A program made the position numbers and the translations under genes. Shown piece after piece: positions 234 to 15,189 of a DNA stretch of 15,189 nt (position 1 is its first letter; each line of letters starts with the position of its first letter). The notes under the pieces are model-generated. The model did not search any database. It had not been told where the DNA came from and saw only the letters and a program-made list of their open reading frames with translations. This stretch comes from a virus (Duplodnaviria; Heunggongvirae; Uroviricota; Caudoviricetes), in the IMG/VR virus record IMGVR_UViG_2651869755_000008; one strand, written 5' to 3'.

Positions 234-1214
234 TTATTCAACAAAGCCCACCCTGGGCATGAAAACAAAATGCAGTTTTTGCTTTTCGGTTCTGCCGTAC
301 TCCCGATGATAAAAGGTGATTTCGCTTTTGCGATGATGCCCGGTCAGTTTGTATTGCTCCTTCAGTGCTTCAAGAGCAGGCTGCAGTAGTGTTACTGTCC
401 GGATCCCGGCATTTGTTTTTGGGGGACCGAACATATCAAGTATCGTCAGGTTTCTTCTGACATTCACTATTCCCTTTTCGAGATCCACATCCTCCCACGC
501 CAGAGCTGCCAGTTCCCCGTGACGAAGTCCTGAGTAAACTGCAAATTTCCACATGTTCTGGCTCTGTCCTTTTTCACTTTCCATTAATGCATTGAATTCT
601 GTTTTAGATAACGGATCAGGCTTTATTCTGTTTCGCTGTAATTTTTTTACTCCTTCAAATGGTTTGGTTGATATAAATCCCGACTGATACGCAAAACGTA
701 ACAGCGAACAGAGCAGGGCGATATAGTTATCAACTGTGCGCACGGTTCTTCCTTTTTTGTTGGATCTTGGATTATCCAGGTAAAGCGTTTCTCCATGCAG
801 CAGTTCATTCCGGTAGTTTAAGATATCGCTATAACGAATATGTGATATCAGGGTACTTTCACAAATTATTATTCTGAGTGTTTTTAATTGTGATTTCGTT
901 TTCTTCATTGTGTTTGTTGTTAACTCTGTCTCTTTAATTTTTGTCCAGATATCACAAAGCTCTCCGAACGTTTTTATGACTCTCGTTGTCACCATTTTTG
1001 CCCCAGTGCTGGACTGGGGAAAACGTCTTAAATACTCAAATTCACCGGAGTTTATTTCATGAACTATCAGCGCTCTTAAATTTCCGGCCTTTTTAATATT
1101 ACTGTTTGTAATCTCCCAGCCTTTTAATGTTTCCCGACATCGTTTTCCTCGAAACATGAACCAGATGCGAATGTATCTACCTCTAATCTCGACACCTGTT
1201 GGTAATTTAGACAT
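234..1214 (-). CDS. intR: Phage tyrosine integrase (Rac IntR-like), apparently C-terminally truncated at 326 aa
   Basis: ORF-track protein has an integrase N-terminal arm-binding region and the box I motif VYSGLRHGELAALAWEDVD. The HxxR and catalytic Tyr motifs expected about 60-90 aa further on are absent, and I found them in no minus-strand frame of 1..233. Start ATG at 1214 lies 1 nt after the xis stop. Confidence 0.75.
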   Translation of the reverse strand: MSKLPTGVEIRGRYIRIWFMFRGKRCRETLKGWEITNSNIKKAGNLRALIVHEINSGEFEYLRRFPQSSTGAKMVTTRVIKTFGELCDIWTKIKETELTTNTMKKTKSQLKTLRIIICESTLISHIRYSDILNYRNELLHGETLYLDNPRSNKKGRTVRTVDNYIALLCSLLRFAYQSGFISTKPFEGVKKLQRNRIKPDPLSKTEFNALMESEKGQSQNMWKFAVYSGLRHGELAALAWEDVDLEKGIVNVRRNLTILDMFGPPKTNAGIRTVTLLQPALEALKEQYKLTGHHRKSEITFYHREYGRTEKQKLHFVFMPRVGFVE

Positions 1215-8972: not shown

Positions 8973-9761
8973 ATGGCTTCAAACTGGATAAAGCTCGAAG
9001 TTATTACGCCGGATAAGCCGGAAATATTCAGGCTTGCTGAGATTCTGAATATTGATCCAGATGCCGCATTAGGGAAAGTCATTCGCTTCTGGGCATGGGC
9101 GGATCAACAAATGATAGACGGTAACGCAGAGTGTAACGCTCGCGGCGTTACAAAAAGTGCAATAGATCGCATCACTTTTATGGCTGGTTTTGCTGATGCG
9201 TTAATTCAGGTTGGATGGCTGGTCGAAACTAATGGTGTGTTGTCGCTTCCTAACTTTGAGCGCCATAACGGGAAAAGCTCTAAAAAACGGGCGGTTACAA
9301 ACGAGAGAGTAACAAAAATACGAGAACTGAAACGAAAAGGTAACGCTGCCAGCGTTACAAAAACGGATCAAAAAGCGTTACCAGAGGAAGAGAAAGAGGA
9401 AGATATAAATACTTATCTCCCCCTAAATCCCCCTCGCCAAAAACGAGCGTCTAAAAAATTCGAACCGGAGGCTATCGAGCTGCCTGACTGGTTGCCGGAA
9501 ACACTCTGGCATGAGTGGGTTCAGTTCAGGCAGGCATTGCGAAAACCGATTCGAACGGAGCAGGGCGCTAACGGGGCGATACGGGAGCTGGAAAAATTCC
9601 GCCAGCAGGGTTTTTCACCTGAGCAGGTGATTCGACACAGCATCGCCAATGAATACCAGGGCTTGTTCGCGCCAAAAGGTGTTCGACCTGAGACGTTACT
9701 CCGACAGGTTAACACCGTCTCGTTACCGGATAGTGCGATCCCGCCAGGCTTCAGGGGGTAA
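8973..9761 (+). CDS. ydaU: YdaU-like replication initiation protein (lambda O analogue), 262 aa
   Basis: Sits directly upstream of the DnaC-like gene in the lambda O/P arrangement; AAGGTGA SD. Contains palindromic repeats inside the coding region. Family assignment is from memory of Rac YdaU. Confidence 0.75.
   Translation: MASNWIKLEVITPDKPEIFRLAEILNIDPDAALGKVIRFWAWADQQMIDGNAECNARGVTKSAIDRITFMAGFADALIQVGWLVETNGVLSLPNFERHNGKSSKKRAVTNERVTKIRELKRKGNAASVTKTDQKALPEEEKEEDINTYLPLNPPRQKRASKKFEPEAIELPDWLPETLWHEWVQFRQALRKPIRTEQGANGAIRELEKFRQQGFSPEQVIRHSIANEYQGLFAPKGVRPETLLRQVNTVSLPDSAIPPGFRG
9132..9152. repeat. Palindromic iteron-like site TGTAACGCT-cgc-GGCGTTACA, inside ydaU
   Basis: Near-perfect copy of the 8940 palindrome; a GGTAACGC half-site lies at 9120..9127. 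Confidence 0.6.
9339..9359. repeat. Palindromic iteron-like site GGTAACGCT-gcc-AGCGTTACA, inside ydaU
   Basis: Third copy. Further half-site-like GTTACA / GTAACA at 9293..9316. Confidence 0.6.
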
Positions 9762-11298: not shown

Positions 11299-11313
11299 TT
11301 GCCGGAGGCACCT

Positions 11314-11643
11314 ATGGCAAAAGTATTTACACCAGAAGAGCGGGAAAAAATTAAAGGGCAGGTTGTTGAACTTGTACGTCTGAGCGGTCGCGAGACGTTA
11401 CGGGCTCTGGAGGCTAAAACCGGTGCATCAAGGTATTACATAAGCACTCTTGCCAGAGAACTGGTCGCCAGTGGTGATGTTTACAATTCTGGCTACGGAT
11501 TATTCCCGTTTGAGCAGGCGCGTAAAGACTGGCAAAACGCCCGCAAAAAACTATCAAGGGCAAAGATGAAGAAACCGGTTGTGGTAGATCCAAACCTAAT
11601 CTGGTCATTACCTGATGGAGAAATCCGTCGCCTTAGTCTTTGA
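11314..11643 (+). CDS. Hypothetical small prophage protein, 109 aa
   Basis: ATG at 11314 with GGAGG 5 nt upstream; normal GC and codon usage; last gene before the AT-rich island. No recognisable family. Confidence 0.5.
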   Translation: MAKVFTPEEREKIKGQVVELVRLSGRETLRALEAKTGASRYYISTLARELVASGDVYNSGYGLFPFEQARKDWQNARKKLSRAKMKKPVVVDPNLIWSLPDGEIRRLSL

Positions 11644-11744: not shown

Positions 11745-12548
11745 ATGAAACCAGAATACTTAAGGAAAATAGAATCATTGCAACGTGAGGTTGATGATTT
11801 CCATCCAGTGCTAAGAGCGCTTCTACCACGTTTGCCGACTGTTACACATGTTGAATATAAGCAAGGACCATCAGAAAAAGGTGCTGATTTTGTCATAATT
11901 AAACGAGATGAGGCATTAGATGAGGAAATATATATTGGGGTTATTTGTAAGGTTGGAAAGATAATTCAGTCAAATAGTGAGGTCGAACGACAAATAGAAG
12001 AGTGTCAATTATACCCACGCTTTATTTCTTCTGGCTCTAAGAACATACATTTGAATGAAATTTGGGTTGTTACTAATTCATCAATCTCAAATAATGCTCA
12101 AGAAAAAATCTACTTAAAATTCAAATCTACAAATATAAAGTTTATAGAAGGTGAGAAAATATGTTCTTTAATCAGTAAATATTACCCAGAGTTTTGGGAT
12201 TTCGAATCCATTAATTATGAGCAATACTTAACAGATACATTGCAAACCATAAGTGATACTCCTGAAAGTTCTTTTTTTGGTAGTGTTGGCATAAATAACC
12301 TTATTGATAGATATGTAAGCAAGGAAGATCATAAAAAACGCAGGCACAGGCCGTTAAAACTGTATAGTGTTGTGAGAGCCGAGAGATTTATTTTTTTAGA
12401 GGGAACTGTTGGCTCCGGGAAAAGTACTTTGCTGAAACAGCTAATTAAAAAAATAAAAGAAGAATATTCTTACGAAAAAGACTACATCCTTCCAGTATTT
12501 TGCCAATACAAGGATGTTCTAGAAAAAAACTCAATATTGAAAATATAA
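11745..12548 (+). CDS. N-terminal part of a frameshifted Mrr-like nuclease / NACHT NTPase gene (Mrr-like domain plus Walker A)
   Basis: AAGGT SD. N-terminal ~150 aa resemble the Mrr-cat restriction-endonuclease fold (VLRALLPRL...KGADFVII...SEVERQIEEC...NEIWVVTNSSISNNAQEKIY...NIKFIEGEKICSLI). Walker A GTVGSGKST lies near the C-terminus. The frame ends 6 codons after an A7 run. Confidence 0.75.
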   Translation: MKPEYLRKIESLQREVDDFHPVLRALLPRLPTVTHVEYKQGPSEKGADFVIIKRDEALDEEIYIGVICKVGKIIQSNSEVERQIEECQLYPRFISSGSKNIHLNEIWVVTNSSISNNAQEKIYLKFKSTNIKFIEGEKICSLISKYYPEFWDFESINYEQYLTDTLQTISDTPESSFFGSVGINNLIDRYVSKEDHKKRRHRPLKLYSVVRAERFIFLEGTVGSGKSTLLKQLIKKIKEEYSYEKDYILPVFCQYKDVLEKNSILKI

Positions 12549-14002
12549 TACAAAGTGTATTAAGTAAGTACAAAATACAACATGATGGGAATATTTTATT
12601 AATTGTTGATTCGGTGGATGAAGTAAAGGAATCACTTGAGGAAAGGCAAAACAACTTCAGGGACATTGTAGAGAAAGTATCCAGGAGTGATAAAGTTCGA
12701 TTACTAGTTGCTTCAAGAATTATGGACTCTCTTCAGGACTATGAAGTTATCGATCAGATGTTTGCAAGATACTCGATAATACCACTTAGCACAGGTCAAA
12801 TAATCGACTTTGTAGATAAAATCTGCAATGACATTAAAATAACAAACAAGCTTAAGAATGGTATAGAAAAAACACCACTATTTAAATTCATTCCCAGGAC
12901 TCCAGTGAGTGCTATTCTTCTAGCAAGAATACTCTCTGATGAGATTAAAGAATTACCATCTACAATGACAGAACTATACTCAAAATACAGTGAGATAGTA
13001 TTGGGACGATGGGATACATCTAAGGGATTATTATCGCAAACAGAATATGATGTAATAAGTAATATATTAGTAGAAATTGCGATGTTTATGATGGATAACT
13101 CTCTAAACTGCATATCAATTTCTGAAGTGCAGGACATGTTTTTAAATTATTTGGCCAAAAGAAACTTGAATGTTGATGAGGACAAACTTTTCAAAAGACT
13201 AATTTATCGCAGTGAAGTAACAACAGTTAATGTTAGAACTAATACGTTCTCATTTCTACACAGATCATTCATGGAGTATTTTTACGCTGAAGGACTTAGG
13301 AAGCGTGGCTTAATAGACATAAATGATAATATTTATGATATTTATTGGGCAAATAGTTATTTCTTCTATTTTGGTTTATTAAGAGACAATGAATATCTTA
13401 TTGATAAAATTAATGAACTTAAACCTAGTAACGATAAAACAAGATTTTTAAGGTTATTTTATAACGGTTCTTTTTATTTGGCTTCATATCTAACTCCGTA
13501 TAAAAAAATAGCAAGGGGAGTCCTTTTATCATATATAGATGCAGGTAAATTATATGTTGATATTCTCCATGGAAATACCGACATCCCGCTGAAGGAGTTT
13601 TCACCAGTAGCTCTTCTTTGTATTTTTACAAAGTGTTTAAGTAACAATTACGCATATGATTTTTTCAAATCTGCCTTGGAAGACTTGTCAGTTCAAATTG
13701 AACAATATGAGGAAATTGGGGAACATATTGATTATGCACGTTTCTTCATAGCATCAACACTGAATGAGCTCGGGGATAAATCCGCATTTGATAGCTTAGT
13801 GGAAAAAAATAAATTAGGTGTTTTGATTAATTTAGGGATAACTCACGTTACAGACGACTCAGGGCTACTAAGTACTACGGTTGATAAGTACCTGAAAAAA
13901 TTCAATAAAAAAGTACGAAGTAACCATGATATGTCTAATTATATATCTAAGTTATATGAGGAATCTACTGGTTCCTTACGTACAAACCTACAAATTCAAT
14001 AA
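12500..14002 (+). CDS. C-terminal part of the same gene (NACHT Walker B to C-terminal helical domain); frame differs from 11745..12548
   Basis: NACHT-type Walker B LLIVDSVDE, sensor-1-like RLLVASR, TPLF / PRTPVSAILLARIL, and FSFLHRSFMEYFYAEG matching the conserved NACHT motif seen in NLRs. The only start before these motifs is the TTG at 12500 with no SD, so independent translation is unlikely. Confidence 0.75.
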   Translation: MPIQGCSRKKLNIENIIQSVLSKYKIQHDGNILLIVDSVDEVKESLEERQNNFRDIVEKVSRSDKVRLLVASRIMDSLQDYEVIDQMFARYSIIPLSTGQIIDFVDKICNDIKITNKLKNGIEKTPLFKFIPRTPVSAILLARILSDEIKELPSTMTELYSKYSEIVLGRWDTSKGLLSQTEYDVISNILVEIAMFMMDNSLNCISISEVQDMFLNYLAKRNLNVDEDKLFKRLIYRSEVTTVNVRTNTFSFLHRSFMEYFYAEGLRKRGLIDINDNIYDIYWANSYFFYFGLLRDNEYLIDKINELKPSNDKTRFLRLFYNGSFYLASYLTPYKKIARGVLLSYIDAGKLYVDILHGNTDIPLKEFSPVALLCIFTKCLSNNYAYDFFKSALEDLSVQIEQYEEIGEHIDYARFFIASTLNELGDKSAFDSLVEKNKLGVLINLGITHVTDDSGLLSTTVDKYLKKFNKKVRSNHDMSNYISKLYEESTGSLRTNLQIQ

Positions 14003-14013
14003 TAAATAGATTG

Positions 14014-14048
14014 TCACATTGAAGGTAACGTATCGACCTTCAATGTGA
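14014..14048 (+). terminator. Rho-independent terminator-like hairpin after the NACHT gene
   Basis: Perfect 13-bp inverted repeat TCACATTGAAGGT / ACCTTCAATGTGA with a 9-nt loop, followed by TTATTATCCTCTT; 12 bp after the stop. Confidence 0.5.
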
Positions 14049-14941
14049 TTATTATCCTCTTAATAATATAGCCTAGGCTACTTTCGACTTTCTGAGGCAC
14101 AGAGATTGCAGAATGTATCAATCATAGTGAAGCTATCGTAAATGTCCGCACGTTTCTACAGATAGTCAGATTTGAGTGAACTGCCTCCGCAAAATGCTGG
14201 TTGGGGCCTGACTTAATACATCTGAAGAAGTGTTGGTTATGTTTGGCTGTTATGAATCAGATAATTGATATGTTGATTAGAGGAGAAGATAGAATCAACA
14301 TGGTTGTTTTTCGTATAACTATTTGTTTTACTTTTAGTTTATGCATTCTGTGTGTTAGGAGTAAGTTATTAAAGTTTAACCAAAAAATCTTGATGTCGTC
14401 CACATAGATTACTGTTACTGAACCTTATTGTGTGCATTAGTTGTGTTTTGAAATTTCAATTTAATTATTTATGATGTGTATTTTTAACGATAAATGTTTT
14501 CTGGGTAAAAGACAGTGGGGGATGAGATAGGCAATATATCATTAATCTTGATTATCTCCAGGATGCCTTTACTGTTCATATAAATAAATCACATGCGCAT
14601 CAAGTAATGTAAAGGCATCCTTTTAGTTATATCTTATTAAATGTTAATGCTTTGAGTGGAAAACATGATTCCAGCAATTATCATATGGCTACTTTATAAA
14701 AATAATGCCCATATAAAACAACAAGTGAAAAGGATTACGGATAAAAAAGGAGCGAGATGTGCAAAGTTGTTATTTTCCATGTTTAACCACCTTAAACAAT
14801 TGATGATGACGGGATGATTGCATCTGCAATGCTTTTATTGAAATGTTATGATAAAAAAGAACTTTTTCATAACATTAAAATGCAATTTATCTAATCGTTT
14901 TTAATAATAAGTGTGGTATTTCTATCCTTGTACCAGCTATT

Positions 14942-15189
14942 TAGACTGGCCCCCTGAATCACCAGACAACCAATATCACTTATTTAAGTGATAGTCTTAA
15001 TACTAGTTTTTAGGCTAGTCATTGGAGAGCAGATGATTGATGTCTTAGGACCGGAGAAACGCAGACGGCGTACCACACAGGAAAAGATCGCAATTGTTCA
15101 GCAGAGCTTTGAACCAGGGATGACGGTCTCCCTCGTTGCCCGGCAACATGGTGTAGCAGCCAGCCAGTTATTTCTCTGGCGTAAGCAAT
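14942..15189 (+). mobile_element. Left end of an IS2-like insertion sequence (IS3 family), continuing past the window edge
   Basis: TAGACTGGCCCCCTGAATC...CCAGACAACCAATATCACTTA matches my memory of the IS2 left terminal inverted repeat, followed about 90 bp later by the insC start. Confidence 0.8.
15033..15189 (+). CDS. insC: IS2 OrfA (InsC) transposase N-terminal HTH part, partial (52 codons to window edge)
   Basis: Hand-translated [52 protein letters not shown], recognised as the IS2 InsC N-terminus. Confidence 0.8.

Follow-up and report, generated by a model that had tools for sequence, protein, structure and literature searches.

A recurrent one-base contraction probably inactivates the anti-phage gene bNACHT25 in a Rac-like prophage of Escherichia coli

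The window analysed here is the whole of a 15,189-nucleotide stretch of viral DNA (Caudoviricetes; IMG/VR record IMGVR_UViG_2651869755_000008). On its plus strand, two open reading frames (ORFs) follow one another in different frames and appear to encode the two parts of one NACHT-type defence protein, which we identify as the Escherichia coli anti-phage protein bNACHT25. A preliminary description had reported that the ORFs overlap at 12500..12548, that Walker A lies in the upstream and Walker B in the downstream frame, that seven A residues occupy 12523..12529, and that the heptamer A-AAA-AAC stands there in the zero frame. We found each of these in the sequence; the overlap measures 49 nt. 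The locus contains the following features.

11745..14002, plus strand: whole bNACHT25 locus, a pseudogene with a 1-nt deletion; 752 amino acids with one extra A
11745..12548, plus strand: upstream ORF of 267 amino acids, whose TAA stop (12546-12548) closes the frame six codons past the tract; it encodes a PD-(D/E)XK (Mrr-like) nuclease effector domain, assigned by identity with bNACHT25, then the first part of the NACHT NTPase with Walker A, and six out-of-frame codons (NSILKI)
11886..11888, plus strand: D48 codon (position from the translation); in bNACHT25 this residue belongs to the nuclease active site
12402..12428, plus strand: Walker A, GTVGSGKST, in the upstream frame
12500..14002, plus strand: downstream ORF of 500 amino acids from a TTG, in the -1 frame relative to the upstream ORF; it carries Walker B, the remaining NACHT module with winged-helix H506 and S508, and the NCH1 sensor domain
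12523..12529, plus strand: A7 homopolymer and break site, preceded by G and followed by C; A8 in intact alleles
12524..12530, plus strand: A_AAA_AAC heptamer in the zero frame, within the upstream-frame codons GAA AAA AAC
12596..12622, plus strand: Walker B, LLIVDSVDE, in the downstream (-1) frame; the NACHT-specific D[GAS]hDE signature reads DSVDE
13469..13966, plus strand: NCH1 domain (Pfam PF22728, E = 2.2e-38)

By itself the A7 run is unremarkable, because the window has twelve A/T runs of seven or more bases (six of A and six of T) and the G+C content of the gene is 32%. We place the break there because the only difference found at this site in other genomes is A8 versus A7. Inserting one A into the run results in an ORF of 752 amino acids, in keeping with the roughly 750 that had been predicted for an A8 fusion, and the DNA so restored is, base for base, the 2,259-nt coding sequence (CDS) of WP_001702659.1 in strain LC-1302-2020. 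WP_001702659.1 is bNACHT25 (PMC12169576), whose source is E. coli ECOR11 (Kibby et al., preprint 10.1101/2022.07.19.500537). The suggestion that a single NACHT gene has been split into these two ORFs is upheld by this identity and by homologues that are almost all single-chain. The two ORFs together represent bNACHT25, an already described anti-phage gene of E. coli that the loss of one of eight A residues has disrupted.

In Pfam, the fused product matches NACHT (PF05729) with 37.2 bits against a cut-off of 26.7 and NCH1 (PF22728) with 132.2 bits against a cut-off of 27. The match to Mrr_cat at residues 23-143 is weak (17 bits, cut-off 21), and the nuclease domain is assigned because the sequence is identical to bNACHT25, whose D48A mutant loses both defence and toxicity. 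bNACHT25 belongs to clade 6 of the bacterial proteins related to nucleotide-binding leucine-rich repeat (NLR) receptors and combines an N-terminal PD-(D/E)XK DNase with a C-terminal NCH1 domain; D48A abolishes its defence, and expression of the hyperactive H506L variant leads to degradation of DNA and arrest of growth (Kibby preprint 10.1101/2022.07.19.500537; PMC12169576). It confers protection from phages T2 and T4 and from the RNA phage MS2 (Kibby preprint; PMC12169576), and the DnaJ chaperone is required for its defence against T2/T4 and its activation by MS2 proteins (PMC12169576). The D[GAS]hDE motif has been defined as a NACHT-specific signature (Kibby preprint 10.1101/2022.07.19.500537). 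The published anti-phage activity refers to the A8 sequence (PMC12169576). In the window the effector-NACHT-sensor ORF is interrupted at A7, and this copy is a pseudogene allele of bNACHT clade 6, not a functional member by standard decoding. PADLOC returned for the window weak generic P-loop matches (HerA, VakA) only, with no match to a bNACHT model. The bNACHT papers searched for these terms mention neither a natural frameshift polymorphism nor a Rac-prophage location; 'frameshift' appears in just one of them, for phage escape mutants, 'prophage' occurs only where other work is cited, and 'Rac' was not found.

Among the best 120 homologues (32-99% identity), which come from Citrobacter, Providencia, Serratia, Enterobacter, Aeromonas, Pseudomonas and other hosts, almost all are single chains of ~750-830 amino acids, the few shorter ones being fragments, and a conserved split into two genes occurs in none. 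Single chains are likewise the rule among those listed at 37% identity or more. A megablast search found the gene in 18 of 5,426 complete E. coli genomes, always on the chromosome, and gave no match in the phage and plasmid collections. The tract pattern had no match in a scan of one genome per species; tract-bearing alleles therefore occur in no species representative. Comparison of A7 with A8 at homologous loci, the check that the preliminary description had proposed, was made with a 125-nt probe in the 17 complete RefSeq E. coli genomes covering the site, and gave A8 in 15 and A7 in two.

Allele 1, census: A8 in 4 genomes, A7 in 19KM1766N
Allele 2, census: A8 in 11 genomes, A7 in LD67-1

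A8 was also present in five of five metagenome contigs from the Joint Genome Institute (JGI) and in four contigs of a 92%-identical Citrobacter-type allele; A8 loci were drawn from the E. coli complete-genome set and the Citrobacter-type allele only. Because the homologues are single chains and A8 predominates in genomes, metagenomes and the Citrobacter-type allele, A8 is, on sequence comparison, the intact state and A7 the derived one, presumably a loss-of-function allele. The A8 run is the longest homopolymer in the intact gene. Intact alleles 1 and 2 differ by 39 synonymous and 9 non-synonymous codons, and the intact gene is thus under purifying selection.

The contraction has occurred more than once. 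In an alignment of 4.7 kb around the gene (4,747 aligned sites), single-nucleotide polymorphisms (SNPs) that flank the tract, upstream at 9506-9542 and 11324 and downstream at 13531 and 13873, define two prophage lineages. Of these, 1a holds five A7 loci and one A8, and 1b seven A7 loci and one A8. Within 1a, SNP 9997 together with a downstream IS3 insertion unites the window and loci L015 and L018, all A7, with LC-1302-2020, which is A8, while two further A7 loci, L012 and L019, stand outside this group. From the distribution of A7 and A8 across 1a, 1b and the SNP 9997 group, we infer at least three tract changes within allele 1. In allele 2 the A7 version is marked by SNPs of its own, one lying 20 nt before the run and two lying 4 and 8 nt after it, and allele 3 (93% identity), found beside an EcoRII-type restriction-modification (R-M) system, is also A7; A7 is thus present on at least four sequence backgrounds (1a, 1b, allele 2 and allele 3). 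With at least five changes at the tract against ~11 substitution events in the 4,747 aligned sites, the tract would change roughly 1,000 times faster than the average site. Such a rate is as expected for a mononucleotide-run hot spot; these runs have been called 'hot spots for indels' in a study that gives no per-run rates (PMC8510543).

The lineages differ in other ways as well. Eight SNPs within 37 bp at 9506-9542 of the window form a mosaic junction between two Rac lineages, and lineage 1a, which includes the window, has a 139-amino-acid helix-turn-helix repressor where lineage 1b has racR, ydaS and ydaT. Allele 3 adjoins genes for a DNA cytosine methylase and the EcoRII-type endonuclease (L020:550-5807) and does not lie in a Rac prophage. 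The gene moves between defence contexts, since this 93%-identical allele sits beside R-M genes rather than in Rac.

Lesions other than the A-tract contraction also strike the gene. The T7 run at 12391-12397 has become T8 in FDAARGOS_1249, and the resulting 234-amino-acid product is present on 57 contigs; the A7 run at 13502-13508 has become A8 in M160133 (2 contigs). An 87%-identical allele has a T6 to T7 frameshift in one sample and a GAG to TAG nonsense mutation in another, both (L021:1780-1880, L022:1-120) just upstream of the A-tract position. Insertion sequences (IS) contribute too: an IS3 lies at the 5' end of the gene in GPEC1446 (12 contigs), an IS1 truncates the gene in FLI21, and in locus L013 an IS1 has been inserted on top of A7. 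All other frameshifts found in the gene family lie in runs of 6-8 bases, and among the lesions of the gene the A8 run is the one hit most often. In one nearly identical 1a sub-lineage the intact, A7 and T8 states coexist. Such a record is that of a gene constrained while intact and repeatedly lost.

Exact-protein look-ups in public contigs gave these counts.

The window's 267-amino-acid fragment (P0122; A7, allele 1): 195 contigs
Exact intact bNACHT25 (allele 1): 117 contigs
Allele-2 A7 fragment: 38 contigs
Intact allele 2: 567 contigs
A6 (allele 1): 2 contigs
A9 or A10 (either allele): 0 contigs

A7 accounts, by contig count, for ~62% of allele 1 (195 versus 117) and ~6% of allele 2 (38 versus 567). 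The single A8 run is hence the main natural off-route for bNACHT25, most database copies of the exact allele being broken by these counts. Contigs with the 267-amino-acid fragment are of all size classes, most of them under 200 kb, as is typical of short-read assemblies. The fragment also occurs in the draft assemblies GCA_000408225.1 and GCA_000456245.1, which we take to be Illumina assemblies, and in third-party assemblies (L014, L019). Because the A7 fragment is found on 195 contigs, mostly of short-read size and including drafts and third-party assemblies, the A7 state is a real polymorphism of the E. coli population. That A7 in this particular window is likewise real, and not an assembly error, we consider likely.

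We thus favour the view, with good confidence, that the window carries a bNACHT25 gene inactivated by A8 to A7, a genuine and recurrent loss-of-function allele that slipped-strand mispairing would produce. One A would have been lost from the longest homopolymer of the gene, most likely during replication. Translation would then end after residue 261 and six foreign residues, giving a 267-amino-acid fragment that retains the nuclease and Walker A and is devoid of Walker B, winged helix and sensor. As the remaining 491 codons lack their own start signal, the NTPase switch could not form, and defence should be lost from the A7 allele. The same contraction has arisen independently in several allelic backgrounds. 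Because contraction is recurrent and the gene also suffers frameshifts elsewhere, insertion of IS elements and a nonsense mutation, the tract would be a mutational hot spot in an often-lost gene rather than a programmed signal. This is an ordinary kind of gene decay in a known gene and calls for no new mechanism. Sequencing error or genuine inactivating slippage had been put forward as the simplest reading, and that still holds, with the data favouring slippage for the E. coli population. Of the four explanations offered at the time, inactivating slippage has gained, frameshifting and transcriptional slippage have lost ground for want of a stimulatory structure and a conserved layout, and phase variation now looks unlikely.

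Several points weigh against inactivation by recurrent slippage. Prophage recombination could explain part of the 1a/1b pattern, and contig counts such as the 195 for the window's fragment reflect sampling and clonal expansion, not independent events. Tract changes are also asymmetric, with A7 on 233 contigs, A6 on two, A9 and A10 on none, and at least four contractions; this may come from a deletion bias of slippage or from some advantage of the -1 state. Furthermore, L015 and L018, both A7, are complete GenBank chromosomes missing from the RefSeq set that was searched, L018 aligns to the window with 3 gap openings over 13.4 kb, and several LD67-1 genes near the locus are annotated 'frameshifted'. 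For these three reasons some A7 calls, possibly that of the window, could be long-read homopolymer errors.

If so, the isolate would truly be A8 and a long-read consensus would have dropped one base. A 1-nt deletion in the longest homopolymer is a typical long-read error. The window is closest to L015, with 1 mismatch over 13.4 kb, and to LC-1302-2020. The latter, its nearest intact relative, is separated from it by the tract base and a single SNP over 14.9 kb; L015 and L018, the A7 loci most closely related to the window, are those outside RefSeq, and L018 has additional indels. Against this, the identical 267-amino-acid product stands on 195 contigs, mostly from fragmented assemblies of short-read type, and the other 11 window runs of seven or more bases all match LC-1302-2020. 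We therefore regard an error in this window as a minority prospect, unlikely though worth keeping in mind. A phase-variable contingency locus, in which A8 and A7 switch reversibly and often and so turn a costly suicide-type defence on and off, is distinctly improbable. A6, A7 and A8 have all been seen, with at least 4-5 changes among sequences more than 99.7% identical; loss and reversion within 1a are not separable by parsimony; four alleles of at least 92% identity retain GAA AAA AAA at the tract; and R-M genes offer a precedent for phase variation (PMC4209511, PMC3025981). The coding tract thus varies in length among close relatives as that of a contingency locus does, but it is not maintained across alleles. 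It is kept only in alleles of at least 92% identity, the KK codons being lost from alleles of 90-94% identity (END, ENN) and from all more distant homologues, so that END, ENN, EKD or DKN stands elsewhere. Codon usage alone predicts GAA AAA AAA, with AAA preferred 46 versus 17 and GAA 38 versus 20. Seven 1b loci, moreover, have kept A7 through ~6 SNPs and one IS1 insertion, which would bound switching at no more than ~2,400 times the per-site substitution rate. With an assumed substitution rate of 2e-10 per site per generation, switching would run at no more than ~5e-7 per generation, a rate far lower than in classical phase variation, for which we took high-frequency switching to mean at least ~1e-5 per generation and mixed populations within one culture. 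For a species proficient in mismatch repair, eight A:T pairs also make a short contingency tract, and irreversible lesions strike the same gene. It is doubtful that mutation of the A8 run serves as a natural ON/OFF, or ON/leaky-OFF, toggle by which E. coli controls an NLR-like suicide defence carried on a prophage. Were this so, lineages with A7 would be spared the cost of a nuclease triggered via the DnaJ chaperone network while keeping a gene otherwise intact, revertible to A8 and perhaps still yielding trace full-length protein by -1 frameshifting of the IS1 type.

Could the A7 gene instead be rescued by recoding, either through -1 ribosomal frameshifting on A_AAA_AAC or through an A added by RNA polymerase, to yield enough functional bNACHT25? 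A slippery heptamer of the X_XXY_YYZ form is certainly present: A_AAA_AAC lies in the zero frame with a stop only six codons further on, and it is the heptamer of IS1, which works without a known stimulator (PMC4066793). A Shine-Dalgarno (SD)-like AAGGA is found 9 nt upstream (12510-12514), though it is dictated by K and D codons. There are precedents for a 'savior indel' followed by low-level compensatory frameshifting (PMC5009743), and an A11 run rescues tssM1 in Citrobacter rodentium (PMC4256274). Yet neither a stimulatory element nor a conserved layout accompanies the heptamer here. The 90 nt downstream (12531-12620) fold no better than shuffled sequence (z = -0.25; 73 of 200 shuffles fold as well), and the A7 arrangement is not conserved, most orthologous copies being in-frame A8 and distant homologues having no run. 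Unstimulated heptamers in E. coli reach 2-10 times the 0.055% background, with A_AAA_AAC much weaker than A_AAA_AAG (PMC4066793, PMC5009743). As for transcriptional slippage, the run is A7, short of the usual nine or more bases and of the eight or more A needed with E. coli RNA polymerase, whose slippage on shorter runs was not detectable (PMC6260861); selection against runs usually becomes evident at nine bases (PMC1088944). We consider recoding to a useful level very improbable. That the nuclease/Walker A and C-terminal fragments are separate, co-operating proteins seems next to impossible and we reject it, even though both ORFs are long and some genomes have them annotated as separate CDSs. 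It is contradicted by the single-chain homologues, none of which has a conserved split, by the cutting of the P-loop fold between Walker A and Walker B, and by the downstream ORF having no plausible start. No SD-like sequence precedes its in-frame starts at 12500, 12614, 12722 or 12758, and annotators disagree on where it begins, giving products of 500, 462, 365 or 345 amino acids. The preliminary description had named as its refutation two genes conserved separately, each with its own start and ribosome-binding site; none of the homologues has such a layout, and the one-gene reading is not refuted. The internal GTG at 12614, which is the start chosen by PGAP, was rejected as a real start; it has no SD sequence and the codon lies inside Walker B.

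In its wider setting, bNACHT25 is a cargo gene of low G+C content carried by a Rac-like E. coli prophage. Positions 1-248 of the window are the end of an IS903B element (100% match; IS5-like IS903B transposase) that interrupts the Rac integrase gene intR, and the ORF at 234..1214 on the minus strand encodes only the C-terminal 326 amino acids of the 411-amino-acid IntR of LC-1302-2020. Because intR is interrupted by IS903B, the prophage is probably locked in place. At 1535-1713, the RalA antitoxin small RNA (Rfam RF02694, 225 bits) adjoins the Rac prophage toxin gene ralR. Upstream of bNACHT25, the DUF977 gene at 11299-11643 is a remnant without its C-terminus that ends where the G+C content drops from ~50% to ~32%, which makes the bNACHT25 cassette look inserted into genes of the Rac replication region. 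The low-GC block (29-35%) containing bNACHT25 runs on for ~1 kb past the gene stop, at 14003-14942, where we found no ORF of 70 or more amino acids and no Rfam match; hokD is annotated in the equivalent spacer of LD67-1. An IS3-family element begins ~940 nt downstream of bNACHT25 (~14943-15189), between it and a DUF1367 gene. This element is common to the window, LC-1302-2020, L015 and L018, is absent from L012, and was used as a lineage marker. A promoter and terminator scan was uninformative, with 19 promoter-like sites against 15 expected.

In practical terms, both halves are better annotated as one pseudogene, and the strain should not be counted as bNACHT25-proficient; surveys that rely on domain hits can over-count functional defence systems in this way. 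If recurrent loss reflects the cost of a DnaJ-guarding nuclease, natural isogenic A7/A8 pairs would suit the measurement of that cost. The strain of the window and LC-1302-2020 form one such pair, being one SNP and the tract apart over 15 kb of prophage.

Among known systems, the phase-variable R-M genes and other contingency loci of Campylobacter, Helicobacter and Haemophilus (PMC3025981, PMC4209511) resemble this locus in that gain or loss of one base in a coding run disables a defence gene, recurrently and with several run lengths; they are the extreme of homopolymer slippage, which otherwise leads to ordinary pseudogenisation at mononucleotide runs. They differ from it in that the bNACHT25 run is short (8 A:T pairs) and lies in a mismatch-repair-proficient host, changes at a hot-spot-like rate, is conserved only in close alleles and is joined by irreversible lesions. 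In IS1 insA-insB' the identical A_AAA_AAC is likewise read in the zero frame where two ORFs briefly overlap, the second of them being in the -1 frame (PMC4066793). There, however, the overlap is the conserved wild type and the fusion a functional transposase, whereas the overlap in the window is a derived lesion. The A11 run of C. rodentium tssM1 (PMC4256274) and the 9A/9T runs of IS elements (PMC1088944) likewise place a homopolymer before a premature stop, with one more A restoring the frame; those runs are 9-11 bases long and give at least 20-25% frameshifting, whereas A7 is below the detectable length (PMC6260861). The closest counterpart is bNACHT25 of ECOR11 itself, from which the window copy departs in having A7 instead of A8 and in giving no full-length protein by standard decoding. 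Once the A is restored the two are identical, and they have in common the nuclease domain with D48, the NCH1 domain and a NACHT module that contains Walker A, DSVDE, H506 and S508.

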